Shown here: piece after piece, positions 3,621 to 56,302 of the stretch | Layout of the letters: the number at the start of each line of letters is the position of its first letter | Numbering within the stretch: position 1 is the stretch's first letter | Assembly (NCBI GenBank): GCA_951406725.2 | Contig: OX597836.1 | Location: 47,430,001 to 47,494,000, forward strand | Source: Octopus vulgaris | Lineage: Eukaryota | Direction: 5' to 3' | DNA: 64,000 nucleotides | Made by a program: the position numbers and the translations under genes | Notes under the pieces: generated by a model | The model's input: only the letters and a program-made list of their open reading frames with translations | Told to the model about the DNA's origin: nothing | Databases searched by the model: none

Positions 3621-4073
3621 TGTAGAATAAGAATTTGATATCATTTTCCAGCTGATATATTCTTACATTCCTTTATTTTTGGGTTTATTTTTTTCTTCTC
3701 CTAATTTCAGTTATTGGACTGTAGCCATGCTGGGACACTGTCCCCTAAGGTATAGTTCATTAGATTGGCCCCTGTACTGATTTTTCATCATCTTTGGAAG
3801 AATGAAAAGCAGAATACAAGGGTAAGAACTGGACTCAGAAAATACAGGGATGTAACTAGATACCACAAGGTATTTTGTCTGATGTCCAACTGACTTCCAT
3901 CATCTATCCATCTTCAAGATAAATACCTATTTTAATCTGAAAGCAAACTTTATTGAAAACAGTTTTATCTGAGAAGTATCAAATGCGGCTGTAGTGACAG
4001 AGACAGACAAAGAGGGGGAGAAAAGAGACATCCACACGAATACCTTCGTCTCATGAGTGGTGATCACGTTTAC

Positions 4074-4205
4074 CTGTTTTATATTTGTCATCTCATTTTG
4101 GTGCAGTTCTGTGAGATCATTTAACTGTTCTTCTAGCCGTTCACTTCGATACCGTTCTTCTTCTAGCAGACTGCGTAGATCACTTAGATCTTGATGTAAA
4201 TTGTT
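4074..4205 (-). CDS. TMCC: TMCC-family internal exon, coiled coil ([44 protein letters not shown])
   Basis: Matches the TMCC motif [23 protein letters not shown]; acceptor ttttatttcag|AAC, donor CAG|gtaaac; 132 bp, phase 0/0. Confidence 0.93.
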
Positions 4206-4394
4206 CTGAAATAAAATCAAGAGAAAACAAAGTGGTTATTTAGATGTTGTTCCTTGAAAGATAGCAAAATAATACACGTGGTAAAGTAATTTGTTGCTGG
4301 GGGATACTAAGAAATTTTGTTAAATTAGCCTTTTGACTAATTGCAAACATCAGCCAGTGGCTTTTGAAAGAAAGAAGAGGAAAACTTCAATAAC

Positions 4395-4797
4395 ACTCTT
4401 TACTCTTTTTTCTTTTACTCTTTTACTTGTTTCAGTCATTTGACTGCGGCCATGCTGGAGCACCGCCTTTAGTCGAGCAAATCAACCCCAGGACTTATTC
4501 TTTGTAAGCCTAGTACTTATTCTATCGGTCTCTTTTGCCGAACTGCTAAGTTACGGGGACGTAAACACACCAGCATCGGTTGTCAAGCGATGTTAGGGGG
4601 ACAAACACAGACACACAAACATACACACACATATATATGTGCATATATACAACAGGTTTCTTTCAGTTTCCGTCTACCAAATCCACTCACAAGGCTTTGG
4701 TCAGCCCGAAGCTATAGTAGAAGACACAGTGGGACTGAACCCAGAACCATGTGGTTGGTAAGCAGGCTACTTACCACACAGCTACTCCTGTGCCTAT
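4395..4797 (-). mobile_element. tRNA-derived SINE (family A)
   Basis: A/B-box-like head, internal TA/CA microsatellite, (agagtaaa)n tail; small internal deletion relative to other copies. Confidence 0.85.
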
Positions 4798-5270
4798 GTA
4801 ACAAAAGCATTTTTTCTTTTATTGTCACTGTTATTTCCTATTTGCTTCTATCCAGAAATCAAAGAAAATGACTTCTATTCCCTTCAAACTTTGCTTTTGT
4901 CACCTGGGCATCAATATTTTGAAACTGACCTATTTTCCATTACACTTCCGACAGATTCAGCACTGAGTTGCTGAAGCGGAAATATCATTATAGCAAATAT
5001 TCTGTCCAATATCACAGATTTGCTTGTCACTTGCTTGACCTTAACCACTTGGGCATGTCCCTTAGTGGCTGTCAATACACACATCTCTCACCATGAGCAG
5101 GGGTAGTGGGGGGATCAATCCTAGCTATGTGTTGAGAGGAATTCTTTGTGGTTTGAATAAATGTAACAAAAGCCAAGTTTGAAGGAAATATTAACCATTT
5201 TTCATTCTTTTTAAAGGGTAAACAAATAGGAAATTACAGTTGCTACCCAAGGGCAAAAAATTTGTTACAC

Positions 5271-5680
5271 AGGCGCAGGAATGGCTGTGTGGTAAGTAGC
5301 TTGCTTACGAACCACATGGTTCCGGGTTCAGTCCCACTGCGTGGAACCTTGGGTAAGTGTCTTCTACTATAGCCTCGAGCTGACCAAAGCCTTGTGAGTG
5401 GATTTGGTAGACGGAAATTGAAAGAAGCCCGTCGTATATATGTATATATATATATATGCGTGAGTGTGTTTGTGTGTCTGTGTTTGTCCCTCCAACATCG
5501 CTTGACAACCGATGCTGGTGTGTTTACGTCCCCGTAACTTAGCAGTTCGGCAAAAGTGACCGATAGAATAAGTACTAGGCTTACAAAGAATAAGTCCTGG
5601 GGTCGATTTGATCGACTAAAGGCGGTGCTCCAGCATGGCCGCAGTCAAATGACTGAAACAAGTAAAAGAGTAAAAAAGTG
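5271..5680 (+). mobile_element. tRNA-derived SINE (family A), full length
   Basis: Head tggctgtgtggtaag...gggttcagtccc (A/B boxes); tail gaaacaagtaaaagagtaaaa. Confidence 0.88.
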
Positions 5681-5954
5681 TAATCAATTATGTTAAAGAG
5701 AATCAACTTCCATTGGTGCTTTTTGTTTTTCTATTTTGATTCAAAGTATGTGATGACTGAGGAGGAGGTATTGTTCAGAGACACTTCGAGTAAGCTTAAT
5801 GAATCTACATGTGAGTGACACCAGTACTTTTGTAGTCTTTCAGTATGATAAAGAGGGATTTTTCAGTGCGGCATTTGTCTTGGATACAATGCTTTGTGGA
5901 TATCTGTTGTGCTTCTGAATTGGTTTCATTGTATGATTTGCTACTGCTGGTAGT

Positions 5955-8213
5955 ATTCGTCTATACTTCTTACCTTGTAAGGGTCAAATTCGTCTATATT
6001 TCTTACCTTGTAAGGGTCAAATTCGTCTATACTTCTTACCTTGTAAGGGTCAAATTCGTCTATACTTCTTACCTTGTAAGGGTCAAATTCGTCAATACTT
6101 CTTACCTTGTAAGGGTCAAATTCGTCAATACTTCTTACCTTGTAAGGGTCAAATTCGTCAATACTTCTTACCTTGTAAGGGTCAAATTCGTCTATACTTC
6201 TTACCTTGTAAGGGTCAAATTCGTCTATACTTCTTACCTTGTAAGGGTCAAATTCGTCTATACTTCTTACCTTGTAAGGGTCAAATTCGTCTATACTTCT
6301 TACCTTGTAAGGGTCAAATTCGTCTATACTTCTTACCTTGTAAGGGTCAAATTCGTCTATACTTCTTACCTTGTAAGGGTCAAATTCGTCAATACTTCTT
6401 ACCTTGTAAGGGTCAAATTCGTCAATACTTCTTACCTTGTAAGGGTCAAATTCGTCAATACTTCTTACCTTGTAAGGGTCAAATTCGTCTATACTTCTTA
6501 CCTTGTAACGGTCAAATTCGTCTATACTTCTTACCTTGTAAGGGTCAAATTCGTCTATACTTCTTACCTTGTAAGGGTCAAATTCGTCAATACTTCTTAC
6601 CTTGTAAGGGTCAAATTCGTCAATACTTCTTACCTTGTAAGGGTCAAATTCGTCTATACTTCTTACCTTGTAAGGGTCAAATTCGTCTATACTTCTTACC
6701 TTGTAAGGGTCAAATTCGTCAATACTTCTTACCTTGTAAGGGTCAAATTCGTCTATACTTCTTACCTTGTAAGGGTCAAATTCGTCTATACTTCTTACCT
6801 TGTAAGGGTCAAATTCGTCAATACTTCTTACCTTGTAAGGGTCAAATTCGTCAATACTTCTTACCTTGTAAGGGTCAAATTCGTCAATACTTCTTACCTT
6901 GTAAGGGTCAAATTCGTCAATACTTCTTACCTTGTAAGGGTCAAATTCGTCAATACTTCTTACCTTGTAAGGGTCAAATTCGTCAATACTTCTTACCTTG
7001 TAAGGGTCAAATTCGTCAATACTTCTTACCTTGTAAGGGTCAAATTCGTCTATATTTCTTACCTTGTAAGGGTCAAATTCGTCAATACTTCTTACCTTGT
7101 AAGGGTCAAATTCGTCAATACTTCTTACCTTGTAAGGGTCAAATTCGTCTATATTTCTTACCTTGTAAGGGTCAAATTCGTCTATACTTCTTACCTTACC
7201 TTGTAAGGGTCAAATTCGTCTATACTTCTTACCTTGTAAGGGTCAAATTCGTCTATACTTCTTACCTTGTAAGGGTCAAATTCGTCTATACTTCTTACCT
7301 TGTAAGGGTCAAATTCGTCTATACTTCTTACCTTGTAAGGGTCAAATTCGTCTATACTTCTTACCTTGTAAGGGTCAAATTCGTCAATACTTCTTACCTT
7401 GTAAGGGTCAAATTCGTCAATACTTCTTACCTTGTAAGGGTCAAATTCGTCTATACTTCTTACCTTGTAAGGGTCAAATTCGTCAATACTTCTTACCTTG
7501 TAAGGGTCAAATTCGTCAATACTTCTTACCTTGTAAGGGTCAAATTCGTCTATATTTCTTACCTTGTAAGGGTCAAATTCGTCAATACTTCTTACCTTGT
7601 AAGGGTCAAATTCGTCAATACTTCTTACCTTGTAAGGGTCAAATTCGTCAATACTTCTTACCTTGTAAGGGTCAAATTCGTCTATATTTCTTACCTTGTA
7701 AGGGTCAAATTCGTCAATACTTCTTACCTTGTAAGGGTCAAATTCGTCTATACTTCTTACCTTGTAAGGGTCAAATTCGTCTATATTTCTTACCTTGTAA
7801 GGGTCAAATTCGTCAATACTTCTTACCTTGTAAGGGTCAAATTCGTCAATACTTCTTACCTTGTAAGGGTCAAATTCGTCAATACTTCTTACCTTGTAAG
7901 GGTCAAATTCGTCTATATTTCTTACCTTGTAAGGGTCAAATTCGTCTATACTTCTTACCTTGTAAGGGTCAAATTCGTCAATACTTCTTACCTTGTAAGG
8001 GTCAAATTCGTCAATACTTCTTACCTTGTAAGGGTCAAATTCGTCTATATTTCTTACCTTGTAAGGGTCAAATTCGTCAATACTTCTTACCTTGTAACAG
8101 TCAAATTCGTCAATACTTCTTACCTTGTAAGGGTCAAATTCGTCAATACTTCTTACCTTGTAAGGGTCAAATTCGTCAATACTTCTTACCTTGTAAGGGT
8201 CAAATTCGTCTAT
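5955..8213 (-). repeat. 33-bp minisatellite (~68 units) spanning a TMCC exon/intron boundary
   Basis: Minus-strand unit ATAGACGAATTTGACCCTTACAAG|GTAAGAAGT; 33-bp period except a 5-bp duplication at 7191-7200. Confidence 0.97.
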
Positions 8214-8466
8214 AATTCGCTGTACTTTCTCTTGGAGTTTCTCAATAGTTCTGCGATTAGCATCATGTTGCTCAAACAGTTGGTAAGTCTCAATGTTAAA
8301 TGGGGAAGGCTGATTGATTACAGTAGGGATCTGCATTGATGCCGATGGCAAAGAGGTCTGTTGTTGCTGTGCCATGTTCTGTGAAGCTGAATGTGGACTA
8401 CTCTGGGCACCAAATCCTGAACCAGACGTTATGCTAGAGTTATCATCTTCAGAACCATATTTGAAG
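8190..8466 (-). CDS. TMCC: TMCC-family internal exon (FKYGSEDDNSSITSGSG...EKVQRIIDEFDPYK), drawn to the first donor
   Basis: KYGSEDDxSSxTSGS is a TMCC motif; acceptor tgtgtttcag|C (phase 2), donor AAG|gtaaga (phase 0), which joins in frame to exon 4074-4205. Confidence 0.9.
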
Positions 8467-8652
8467 CTGAAACACACAGAAATAATAATGAAAAAGTGTC
8501 ACAATAGAAGAGAGAGAATCACTTAAGGCTTCCACATGCAGAGACTAAATAAACTTTTTCAATATGTATATTTTGTGATTGTGTATGTGAGACAGTATGA
8601 TGTACAGGTAGGTGTGAAAACCTGACCAATATGGAGAAAGCTTTATAAAATT

Positions 8653-19599: not shown

Positions 19600-21990
19600 A
19601 GGAACACCGGGGGACGTTTAACATGTGAGAGCGATAAAACAGTGCTCCGAAATCTATCCACAAGCATCAGAAATAAAGACATCGCATGGAGCCAAAAAAT
19701 AGCTGACAAAGGATTGGACTATATCCGAGAAAGTAATACACATTGAAATTTATTTCTATTTTCCAAATGAAATTATGTATTTTAACTCAATATCATCTCC
19801 ACCTCTCGCAAAGCACATGTAAACATGCTTGATACATTATGATCCATCAACACCATACCATCTCCAGCCCCAAACACCATGTACAAAAAAATTACAAATA
19901 AATTAAATAATACCGGTATTATTCAACCCAAGAATAACAATCGGGAAGTGCGTACTTTAAACTTGCTACACAAAAAGTATGAAAAACTACACATGCAGAA
20001 CAATGTGACAACAGAAATGAACGGACTGGTATCCTACGAAAATGATGACCGTCAAAACAAAGGGCCGGACGTTGTTCCTCATGTCCCGCAAATAATACCA
20101 AAAAGGCATAAATGGACACGCGAGGAATATATTTCAATCCTACACGCTTACTTTACAGCAGTGCTCTACCCAAAGAATGAAAACACAACAACATATACAT
20201 ATAAAATATGGAAGAAAAATAACCTAAATAAAGACTTGGATACAGCAATGAACCCTAATAAACTAGCTAACATACGAAGATATATTCTCAACGCAAAAAA
20301 AAATATCAGAAATAGAACATTTAAAAGAAAAAATACATCAGGAAAATGTAGATAGAAGCCACACAACAATGCCAAATAATATAAACACTGAGATAGTAAA
20401 ACATGAAGACAAACGTAACATTTCCAACAAAAACGAAATAAACAAAAAACAACAAACCCAGACCGTAGGGATGCATAATAATGTATGAAAAGCAGCAAAC
20501 CAAAACACGACGGACAAACATATGAATGAGAAAGAAAGCGACACAAATCTAAAACCTGGAAACAACGAAGGGGAGCCTAATGATTATTATACTATAAAAA
20601 GTAGAATAATCAAAGAACTGAATACCACAGATCTCAGAATAGACCACCGACCATACCTCCCAAAAATCAAAATAGACAAAAAAACAACATCAATAATAAA
20701 TAGCAGAAACCTAGCCATCACAGAACTAATAGCCACTGAAACAAATAGCAATATCACTGAACTAAATGACTTAGTATATGCAGCAGCCACTGCAGACACA
20801 AAAGAAGCTGGATACTCCCTCAAACCCATCCAAACAGGAGTACCACCACCCAAACAAACCCTGTGGATAAATAACATCCCCCCCCCCCAAAAAAAAAATT
20901 ACAAAATATGAGAAAAGATCTGTCGATTCTTAACGAAATCAGTAGACAATCAACACTAATAAGCAACAAAAAGAAAACAAAAGAACTAGCCAAACTAAAC
21001 AGGGAAACAAGTAAAATAATGATGGAATATAGAATAGACCCCCCAAAATTTGATGTAGAAAGGTTATATACACAATAAATTGAAGGTGGTAGAGGCCTTA
21101 TACAACTAGAAAACTAGCATAAAGTAACCACATCGGAATACAGAAACATCTTATTCAGATCCAAGGAAAACTGGAATAAAAACCCACAAAGCATGAGTAA
21201 AACAAACTGTTTTTCTGTCTTCGAGAAAGCAGAAAAGTACAAGGAGGAAGAAACATCAAAAGCTGTAAAGCAACAAAAAATCTAAACTAAAACAGGAACT
21301 ACAAAATACCAGGAAAATACTATGGCAAGAAAAGCCTTTGCATGGGTAAATACAGAGATAAGCTAAACAAAAAGAGAAATAGACAATGCAAAATACAAAG
21401 ACTGGTTGAGAAGTTTGGATCCCAAAGCAGAGATTGAAGGGATTTTCACTGTGGCAGAAGATCAAAGACTATCCACTAGAAACTTCCAAAAACACACAAT
21501 GAAGAAAAATACAAGTAACTGCAGAATATGTGGTGATGAGGAAGAAACAAGAAAATTATATTGTATCTGGTTGCCCAGTCCTGGCCAAGAAGGAATACAT
21601 TCACAAACATGAAAGATTGGAACTTAAATACACTGGAAGCTGTGCCAGTATTATGGAATAACATCAGGAAAAAGATCGTTATAGGCATATGCCAGAAAAG
21701 GCCTCAGAAAGGGACAAAGGAACCATACTCTGAGATATGCTAATACACACAGAGAGATCAAGGCTAATGGGCCAGATATTGTTGTCAGGGACCACCAAGA
21801 AAAACAAAATGCCTTCTAATTGACATATTACTCTGAACAGATAATAATGTATCTCTAAAACAAATGGAGAAACTCTCAAAATATAAAGATCTGGAAATAG
21901 ATCTTTCTGAAGACAGAAGTAATCCTTATAATAATAGGTGCACTAGGCATGTTTAAAAAACATAGACAAACCAAAACTCCAAAACGTTAC

Positions 21991-21995
<5 letters not shown>
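19600..21995 (+). mobile_element. Decayed, internally deleted RLE-type non-LTR retrotransposon (R4/Dong-like) in (TAA)n
   Basis: RHKWTREEY N-terminal motif, GGRGLIQLE, CRICG zinc knuckle, PDIVV...KYKDLEI endonuclease; many stops; (TAA)n on both flanks. Confidence 0.72.
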
Positions 21996-22028
<33 letters not shown>

Positions 22029-22436
22029 CTTTTCTACTATAGGCACAAGGCCTGAAATTTTGGGGGAGGGGACTAGTCAATTACATTGACCCCAGTGTTT
22101 AACAGGTACTTAGTTTATCAACTCCAAAAGGACGAAAGGCAAAGTCAATATCAGCAGATTTTAAACTCAGAACATAAAAATAGATGAAATGTTGCTAAGC
22201 TTTTCACCTTACTAATAATAATAACCCTTTCTACTACAGGAAGAAGACCTGAAACTTTGGGGAAGGGAACAAGTCAATGCATTAACCCCAGTGTTTCACT
22301 GGTACTTCATTTATCGACCCCAAAAGGATAAAAAGTAAAGTCGACCTAGGCAGAATTTGAACTCAGAACATAGTGACAGGTGAAATACCACTATGCATTT
22401 CACCCAGTACACTAACAATTCAGCCAGCTCTTCACC

Positions 22437-46989: not shown

Positions 46990-49740
46990 ACCCCAAGTTC
47001 CCAGGTCCACAATGAACATTGGCATAATGAAAGGTAGGTCTGGAAAGATTCTTGAAATGTTCAAGTGGAGGCATATAGATGTATGCTGTGTGCAAGAAGT
47101 ACAATGGAGGGGGACCTCAGACTACTTGTAGGCAAGAGACATACATACAAATTTTTCTGGGTGGGCAGCAATGACGGTTTACGTGGTGTAGGTATTCTTC
47201 TAGCAGAGAAATTGGTGGATAAGGAGACTGAGGTAATTAAGGTGTGTTATAGGATTATTAAGCTAAGAATTTTGTTTAATGTAATAGTGTCATTTATCTC
47301 TGCTTAAGTTCCATATGTCAGACTCACAACTATTCAAAAGGATTGTTTCTATGAATCCCTTCTGTTGACTACAGGGTTAACATTCTCATCATGGCAGAGC
47401 ACTTCAATGGTCATGCTGGATTCCATGGCATGCATGGAGGTTACAGTTTTGGTTCTAGAAATGAGGAGGGAACAAGGCTGTAGGTGTTTCGTGATGTAAA
47501 TGACTTACTGGTTTGCAACATCAACTTCAAGAAACCTGCCATCCATTTGATCACTTATGAATTTGTTGGGCACACCAGCCAGACTGACTACATTCTCACC
47601 AGAAACACGGACAGGCATATGCTGGTGAATGCAAACTGGTTCCCAGATGAAGAATGTACAACTTAACATAGGTTAATGGTTAGCAACTTCAAACTTAGGG
47701 CTAGAAGGATACAGAGAAACAAACTGATATGAAAGAAGAGGTTGATGAGAAGGAGGAAGAGACAGACATACAACAAAGAGGAAAACAAGGTTTTTGTGAG
47801 ACAATCTGCTGAGAGCAACAGACCAAATATGTGGTTGGAGCAAAACTCTGCCAGACCATGGGTGACTTTGTGGTGAAACAGTGAGGTCAACAAGGCCATA
47901 AAAGTGAAGAGAATGGTTTGGAAAGAGGGGAATGTGGGGGTAGGAAAGAACCCTATCAAATAGCAAAAAGAGAAGCTAGGCATCAGGTTTATCTAGCTAA
48001 GGGCAGAAAGGAAGAGGTTTGCGAATGTCTTACAATGTGAAGATGGGAGACTTGAGGTGTCTTGGATTGGTAGACAGTATGCCAAAGAGAATGAAGATGT
48101 TGTGAGAGAGAGAAGCGTGTACAGATGGATGATGGTATGCTTACACTTAGTAACTCTGGTAAGAAACATGAAAGAACGACTATGAAAGGTTATTAAATGC
48201 AGAGAATGAATGGAAGAAACAGAGTCTCCTCCATGTGAACCCAACAGAGGGACCAGCTATCCTAGTTGACAGCAGTATGATAGATAAGGCAATTAAGGGT
48301 ATGAAGACGGGGAAAATCCATGGTCCATCAAAAGTTGCTGTTGAGATTCTTAAAATATTTGATAGAACATAATATGGTCTAGTCATCCATAAAGTTAATC
48401 AGATTATTCAGGGAGGCATAAGCTCCAGTGACAAGTGTAGCAGCATCAGAACCAGCTGCTACAAGGGTAAGGGAAATGACTTAAAGGGAAGCATCAAATT
48501 ACTAGACCGGTCATAACAGGAACAGAATTAGACAAAATGAAATGCAGATTAGCTCTGTGCCAGGGAGAAACACTAATAATGCTATTATTATAGCCAAGCA
48601 ACTGCAGGAGAAGTATTTAGCCAAGAATAAGCCATTGTACTTGGTATTTGTTGATCTGGAGAAAGCCTTCAACAGGGTCCCTTGCTAAGTGATATGATGG
48701 CATCTGAGGAAGCTAAGGATAGACAAACGGCTTATGAAAGCAGTACAGAACATGTACAAGGGTGCTGTTAGTAAGGTAAGACTTAGCCATGAGTACAGTA
48801 ATGAATTTAGTGTACAGATAGGTGTTCACCAAGGCTCGGTCCTCAGTCCCCTTCTGTTCATCATCGTCCTCCAGGTCATAACAGAGGGATTTAAGACTGG
48901 AAACTCAAGGGAATTATATGCTGATAATCTTGCCCTCATAGTAGAATCTGTAACAGAACTAGAAAAGAAATTTCAGATGTGAAAACAAAACCTAAAATCA
49001 AAGGGTCTCAAAGTTAACTTAGCAAAGACCAAGATCCTAGAAAGGAAAAATATCAGACAGGACCCCACTTGTTTCAGGTAAATAACCCTGCTCAATATGA
49101 AGGAAAAGTGTAGGCAGGAATTCCATTCAGTGTACCCAGTGCAAGCTAGGAAAACACAAGAGGTGCAGTGGAATAGTAGGAAAGTCAACAGAGAAAGTAG
49201 TGCTTGTGTGTGGAAGATGTACAGGAGCCATAAAGACTACAGATACATGGGAAACAGATTTCCTCAAATGCCCCTAAGGTTCTCTGGAAGTAGTAGATAC
49301 TTCTGCTACCTAGGTGACATAATTAGCAGTGGAGGGAGATGTACTGAAAGTGTAATTACTAGAAGAATAGGATGGAGAAAGTTCAGAGAACTTTCACTTC
49401 TGTTGATAAACAAAGGTCTTTCTTTCTCTCCCAGTGAAGGAAAGATTGTATCTTGCATGTGTATGAACAGCAATGATACACGGTAGGGAGATGTGGGCCC
49501 TGAACGCAGAGACTAGAACGTGAAGACTAGAGAGGAATGAAACCAGTATGTTCCACTAGATCTGCAATGTCAGTGTATATCCACAACAGAGCATTGGTGT
49601 ATTGCGATAAAAGTTAGGCATAAGAGGAATTAGATGCAGTGTGCAAAAGAGAAGACCATGCTGGTTTGATCATGTGATGTGGATGGTTGAAGACGGTTGC
49701 ATAAAGAGGTGCAGATCCCTTAAAGTGGATGGAACTTGTG
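46990..49740 (+). mobile_element. Decayed RTE-clade LINE (AP endonuclease + RT)
   Basis: NIGIMKGRS...DVCCVQEVQWRG, FVDLEKAFNRVP, GVHQGSVLSPLLFIIVL, LYADNL; many stops and frameshifts. Confidence 0.85.
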
Positions 49741-56269: not shown

Positions 56270-56302
56270 TCTTTGGCCCCTTTAATATTGTCTACGACAC
56301 CA
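56270..56302 (-). CDS. TMCC: TMCC-family 33-nt exon (GVVDNIKGAK(E))
   Basis: Acceptor cttctttttcctttatag|T, donor AGA|gtaagt; phase 2/2, in frame with exon 40666-40745; parallels the GVVDSVKG upstream of VSKPRE in TMCCs. Not in the ORF track. Confidence 0.82.

Follow-up and report, generated by a model that had tools for sequence, protein, structure and literature searches.

A TMCC gene of Octopus vulgaris carries, at one of its exon-intron junctions, a minisatellite in which the splice donor of that junction is reiterated 69 times. Which of these donors does the RNA use, and can the others lengthen the protein? The question was addressed in a window of 64,000 nucleotides (the whole stretch of DNA analysed, positions 47,430,001 to 47,494,000 of contig OX597836.1), and all coordinates below are those of the window. 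The initial annotation had offered two answers, an isoform ladder built by donor choice or a neutral expansion in which a single donor is used. The relevant features are the following.

8190..8466, minus strand: TMCC coding exon that precedes the array and supplies, with its final 24 nt (8213-8190), the exonic portion of unit 1 (protein match; spliced contigs of runs X1, X12 and X14 with 0 differences).
8184..8192, minus strand: authentic 5' splice site of this exon (donor 1), with the exon end at 8190 and phase 0 (joined to 4205 in 6/6 spliced runs examined and in 10/10 motif-bearing octopus proteins).
5955..8218, minus strand: 33-bp minisatellite, 68.5 copies, 69 donor sites (TRF; repeat contigs also in runs X1, X12, X14 and X15).
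7200..8157, minus strand: donors 2-31, which keep the TMCC frame open; each step would lengthen the coding sequence by 11 codons (frame modelling; use seen in no contig or database protein).
7191..7199, minus strand: 5-nt GTAAG duplication with an added donor at 7195, a frame shift and a TAA stop in the TMCC frame (ORF end 7191).
5974..7195, minus strand: donors 32-69, out of frame and 3' of the stop (in models joined to the next exon, 38/38 reach a stop).
4074..4205, minus strand: next TMCC coding exon, an EERY coiled-coil segment with acceptor 4205 (Pfam PF10267 Tmemb_cc2, E=3.3e-15; 4 runs with a single spliced contig each).

The genome contains five matches to PF10267 (TMCC/TEX28 family, Tmemb_cc2). 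All of them lie on the minus strand of C23 around the window, with the exons in order. Thus, the genome has a single TMCC gene. Over 92 aa, the protein sequence of exon 8466-8190 agrees fully (100%) with O. sinensis TMCC; its identity to the O. bimaculoides cluster is 98%. Further TMCC exons, mapped from the O. sinensis protein P0028, were located at 56301, 40744, 31939 and 19147 and past the left end of the window. The N-terminal part of the O. bimaculoides model P0034 matches 48829-48957 (minus strand) at 86%, where P0028 has no match; either the stretch serves as another first exon or the two gene models differ. TMCC3 has been described as an ER membrane protein (PMC9860497).

TRF reported the minisatellite with 97% matches and a score of 4161. 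On the minus strand the unit consists of the final 24 nt of the TMCC coding exon followed by the first 9 nt of the intron. Unit 1 spans the authentic exon-intron boundary, as the exon end of the spliced contigs (8190) falls within it. When overlaps were counted, the minus-strand donors comprised 68 AAG/GTAAGA sites and one AAG/GTAAGG site. The donors fit the MAG/guragu consensus at 8/9 positions and, the GTAAGG site aside, are mutually identical. The 26-nt core of the array yielded 66 matches in the 2.8-Gb genome, every one within this array, and a reversed control yielded 0. TRF and the donor count thus bore out the position, the 33-bp unit (24 nt of exon and 9 nt of intron) and the approximately 69 donors of the initial annotation. 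Its division of the donors into 31 (8190 to 7200) and 38 (7195 to 5974) also held when recomputed: 31/69 are in frame with donor 1, in phase 0 and stop-free into exon 4205-4074.

Among the units we found one synonymous variant, three amino-acid-changing variants and one frameshift, and these variants are clustered. ATA-type units make up 33/68 of the array. The near-identical units, the clustered variants and the single 5-nt slip point to an origin by duplication, followed by slippage or unequal exchange. The array probably started with a 33-bp duplication across the junction and would then have grown by one of these two processes. On the plus strand two antisense ORFs traverse the array, one of 800 aa (5937-8339) and one of 456 aa (5836-7206). 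The 800-aa frame was rejected as a gene, since two of the three antisense frames of the unit are without stops by chance. Pfam matches of the repeat translation (UvrB_inter and others, with 0 stretches passing) were rejected as repeat artefacts.

The exon is contained in 20 sequencing runs from 8 studies. Seven runs were examined, six spliced ones and X15, which is of genomic type. None of the runs is recorded as RNA, and their RNA status was deduced from contigs that join exons. The evidence consists of Logan assembled contigs, which lose minority forms, and these were compared over two stretches, 4030-4400 and 8112-8600 (approximately three units).

X15 (short reads, organism label B) gave an unspliced contig over the exon at a depth of 5 and five repeat contigs at depths of 27-112. 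The high depth of the array in a genomic-type short-read run makes an assembly artefact unlikely. Moreover, the repeat was present in 4/4 runs examined across it. The core repeat word of X15 reached approximately 22 times the flank depth, compared with a multiplicity of 57 in the assembly, in a run of low depth with a different organism label and with contig depth not being copy number. This figure is the one observation in favor of an artefact or an inflated copy number. However, a shorter allele in another animal accounts for it equally well, and the clustered unit variants and the unique slip are unlike a collapsed or looped assembly. An artefactual or inflated array is hardly credible. At 8112-8214 the repeat depth of X15 fits roughly 20-30 units compared with 68 in the assembly, which hints weakly at a shorter allele, at length polymorphism or at an array shared between species.

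In all six spliced runs (6 studies, 2 organism labels) donor 1 at 8190 was joined to exon 4205. Over the downstream exon, X9, X3, X12 and X19 gave one contig each, whose upstream loose end carries exon-specific bases unique to the sequence before unit 1. Over the upstream exon, X1, X14 and X12 likewise gave one contig each, which exits the exon at 8190 and continues with the first bases of exon 4205. These donor-1 junction contigs are 1233-2751 nt long and unbroken. With a surviving path through a later donor, the k=31 graph would show a fork at the junction and a merge 21-25 nt upstream of it. Neither a fork nor a merge break nor a second junction contig was observed in the contigs of the six spliced runs. 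Consequently, donor 1, the most upstream site, is the majority form in the assembled RNA; that it is the only form is beyond what contigs can show. The contigs of the six runs, which lose minority forms, and the database proteins contained no transcript or protein that uses several donors. The annotation's check, whether all spliced reads end at 8190, therefore came out in favor of donor 1 in 6/6 runs at the level of contigs, at which minor use of donors 2 and 3 could escape. Its ladder with up to 330 inserted aa found no support, since besides the RNA result the unit peptide occurs once per protein (10/43 TMCC proteins), and its alternative, a neutral expansion with one donor used, holds.

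The repeat itself is present in the RNA runs. In X1, X12 and X14 (organism A, three studies) it forms a separate 63-nt contig that represents one closed 33-word cycle. This cycle is of the ATT type only, despite the ATA type of nearly half of the units. The missing ATA-type repeat shows that even common variants can vanish from contigs. Repeat words were detected in 3/3 RNA runs checked, and the ratios of repeat depth to main-contig depth were 0.32, 0.09 and 0.22 in three RNA runs, contig depth being a poor measure of abundance. As rough estimates, these ratios match 0.3-0.9% unspliced RNA or genomic DNA and cap a uniform 30-step ladder at approximately 1-3.5% of the donor-1 RNA. A broad ladder is thus unlikely in the samples examined.

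The array is best described as a minisatellite whose unit 1 lies over the TMCC exon-intron boundary, whose first donor is used and whose other copies are probably near-neutral pseudo-donors. The spliceosome picks the first donor, at least in the majority form, and the remaining copies would leave together with the 4-kb intron. That the most upstream of identical tandem donors wins is a rule from mammalian work, applied here by analogy. The in-frame, stop-free unit would follow incidentally from its length of 33 nt and the phase 0 of the junction, without selection for it. By arithmetic alone, a unit that is in frame and stop-free is expected approximately 1 time in 3 at such a junction. An open frame is cheap, as it mostly results whenever the donor has phase 0 and the unit is a multiple of 3 in length. 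The first-donor explanation is also backed by the open antisense frames, two in number and up to 800 aa long.

A less strict version of the same rule would have donor 1 dominant and donors 2 and 3 in use at a few percent, giving stable in-frame TMCC with 11 or 22 additional aa and no selected function. There is precedent in human CBS and 6-16, which use two pseudo-donors (PMC1557585). The identity of the donors and their consensus match are in line with such leakage, and the in-frame products would presumably evade nonsense-mediated decay. If all repeat depth came from the mRNA of one donor, the ceilings would be 12-44% of the donor-1 level for donor 2 and 5-19% for donor 3, which leaves room for it. 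Nevertheless, the six runs without fork, merge break or second junction contig speak against leakage, as do the seven O. sinensis models, in which no isoform with 11 additional aa is annotated. We consider leakage of this kind improbable, though worth bearing in mind.

The consequences of using later donors for the protein depend on where the inserts would be placed. The initial annotation had put them directly before the coiled coil. The next exon is indeed a coiled-coil segment; by heptad spacing, however, the predicted coiled coil already starts in the upstream exon and its heptad pattern continues through the junction, which places the junction within it (heptads read by eye, together with the Pfam name). 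Inserts from donors 2-31, with one proline per unit, would accordingly fall within the predicted coiled coil.

Of the ten carriers of the unit peptide among the 43 TMCC proteins, 7 are RefSeq isoforms of O. sinensis and 3 belong to the O. bimaculoides cluster. Each carries a single copy, followed by the next exon. A homolog search with 7 units returned no repeat-bearing TMCC but only the two ordinary octopus TMCC clusters, a null result that is weak evidence. Its 18 PF11178 proteins (E 0.7-9) were set aside as unrelated. The database proteins are mostly gene models, from species that may or may not carry the array. The distance from the junction to the EERY-type motif was counted in 39 TMCC proteins in which both motifs were matched (4/43 were unmatched). 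Octopus, bivalves and gastropods share a distance of 13 residues, and one other cluster has 15. This cluster (P0003-P0006 and P0036-P0043, approximately 64% identical to the octopus exon) carries two additional residues at the same junction, possibly by a shifted splice site. Neither coding constraint on the units (3 amino-acid-changing compared with 1 synonymous variant and the frameshift, few events) nor length variation of homologs at the site (spacing 13 or 15, n=39) was found.

These data also bear on a functional ladder, in which the choice among donors 2-31 would be regulated, the TMCC coiled coil would receive as much as 330 aa of repeat and allele length would determine the range. The 31 in-frame, stop-free donors would permit it, and boundary repeats can stay in alternative transcripts of human duplicated genes (PMC2812944). 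However, such an open frame is expected about one time in three anyway, and the frameshift and stop cut off more than half of the donors. Furthermore, a uniform ladder is roughly capped at the low level given above, the junction spacing is conserved across molluscs, and every unit would probably place a proline inside the heptad run. A functional ladder is very doubtful. The same low credence applies to its use in an unsampled tissue or stage, for example nervous tissue, where many of the 30 downstream in-frame donors might give an allele-length-dependent ladder of TMCC proteins of the ER membrane whose coiled coil carries proline-bearing inserts of 11 residues, a splice-controlled molecular ruler built by a minisatellite. 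If a ladder were true, a polymorphic repeat would set protein length through splice choice.

First-donor use of an array of pseudo-donors has parallels. Several such arrays have been published (PMC1557585, PMC3087553), although the initial annotation was aware of none. Junction-spanning donor minisatellites are reported for human F7, CBS, 6-16, LAMIN B2 (LMNB2) and PDGF (PMC1557585). According to this source only the first donor is used in F7, LMNB2 and PDGF, and two pseudo-donors are used besides the authentic donor in CBS and 6-16. The closest likeness is the 37-bp VNTR in intron 7 of human F7 (Borensztajn et al. 2006, PMC1557585), in which unit 1 also lies over the boundary, the donor is identically reiterated and the most upstream copy is used. 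The F7 units number 5-9, contain 4 exonic bases and are not a multiple of 3 in length, whereas the TMCC array has 68.5 units with 24 exonic bases, its first 31 donors being in frame and stop-free. In F7, polymorphism and mechanism were tested experimentally, and minigenes showed that the pseudo-donors are functional once the first is inactivated, which was termed oriented selection (PMC1557585); the TMCC array is known from sequence and contigs.

The 31-bp VNTR in intron 13 of human CBS, c.1444_1467+7(16_21), comprises 24 exonic and 7 intronic bases by its notation, compared with 24 and 9 in TMCC, and single-base unit variants are common to both arrays (PMC2630376). The CBS array has 16-21 units, is out of frame and has two pseudo-donors in use, whereas no such use was seen in the TMCC contigs (PMC2630376, PMC1557585). 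The arrays of 6-16 (25 pseudo-sites), LAMIN B2 (100-bp unit) and PDGF intron 4 (81-bp unit) span a junction with a donor as the TMCC array does, but have fewer copies, and 6-16 also uses the two nearest pseudo-sites (PMC1557585). Among invertebrates, the "mirage" minisatellites of amphioxus in Adh3 and the globins BflGb6 and BflGb9 are length-unstable tandem duplications of boundaries with regular splicing reported as undisturbed (PMC3087553). Amphioxus is a cephalochordate and not a mollusc, and the globin mirages have 3-6 units of approximately 150-160 bp (PMC3087553). The precedent for a ladder comes from boundary repeats of approximately 30 bp in human duplicated genes, which can affect splicing or change the encoded sequence (De Grassi and Ciccarelli 2009, PMC2812944). 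They have approximately 4 copies and their transcripts keep the repeat, in contrast to the TMCC array, for which no repeat-keeping transcript was present in the contigs examined. With a head-to-tail unit within approximately 10-160 bp, a boundary-spanning unit 1, intact donors and the first donor as the main one, the TMCC array matches the junction-spanning donor minisatellites of the F7/CBS type, or mirages. A search mostly outside subscription journals found no published account of the octopus TMCC array, and no paper on human VNTR splice cases in UPF3A, CUL4A or PQLC1 was found.

The TMCC array thus adds a large case from a mollusc to a repeat type already in the literature. Its size sets it apart, with 69 donors where the cited human cases reach 26 at most, as do its 30 pseudo-donors in frame. 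Since donors 2-31 share the sequence of donor 1 and its frame, their products should not be concealed by nonsense-mediated decay, in contrast to those of the 37-bp F7 and 31-bp CBS units. Counts of raw junction reads would therefore test the rule that the most upstream donor wins without a decay bias. This rule was established in mammalian cells, and the TMCC array offers a lophotrochozoan test case at 69 donors.

Other donor repeats in this genome were sought with a triple-donor pattern, which was not enriched genome-wide (663 matches compared with 1854 in a reversed control). Nine loci picked from the 100 matches listed had open frames no longer than 111 aa, and none of them showed an obvious exon that stops at the first motif. 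The units of the minisatellites L012 (G000:C2:869200-872500), L011 and L013 measure 35, 49 and 32 bp and all contain a donor-like motif; no obvious exon precedes the first unit.

Several further features were observed in the window. The intron of the array also contains an inverted pair of presumably SINE-like elements (4413-4805 and 5261-5675), located between the array and the acceptor. Its arms pair over 237 nt at 95%, 127 nt at 86% and 82 nt at 90%. The pair could form long double-stranded RNA and is a possible candidate substrate for A-to-I editing. Other TMCC introns contain tandem arrays of 185 bp x 4.0 (248-993) and 196 bp x 2.0 (22016-22404). Finally, an A-rich stretch at 19843-22000, with an AT skew of 0.42 at 20001-22000 and a 170-aa open frame at 19843-20355, is perhaps a decayed retroelement.
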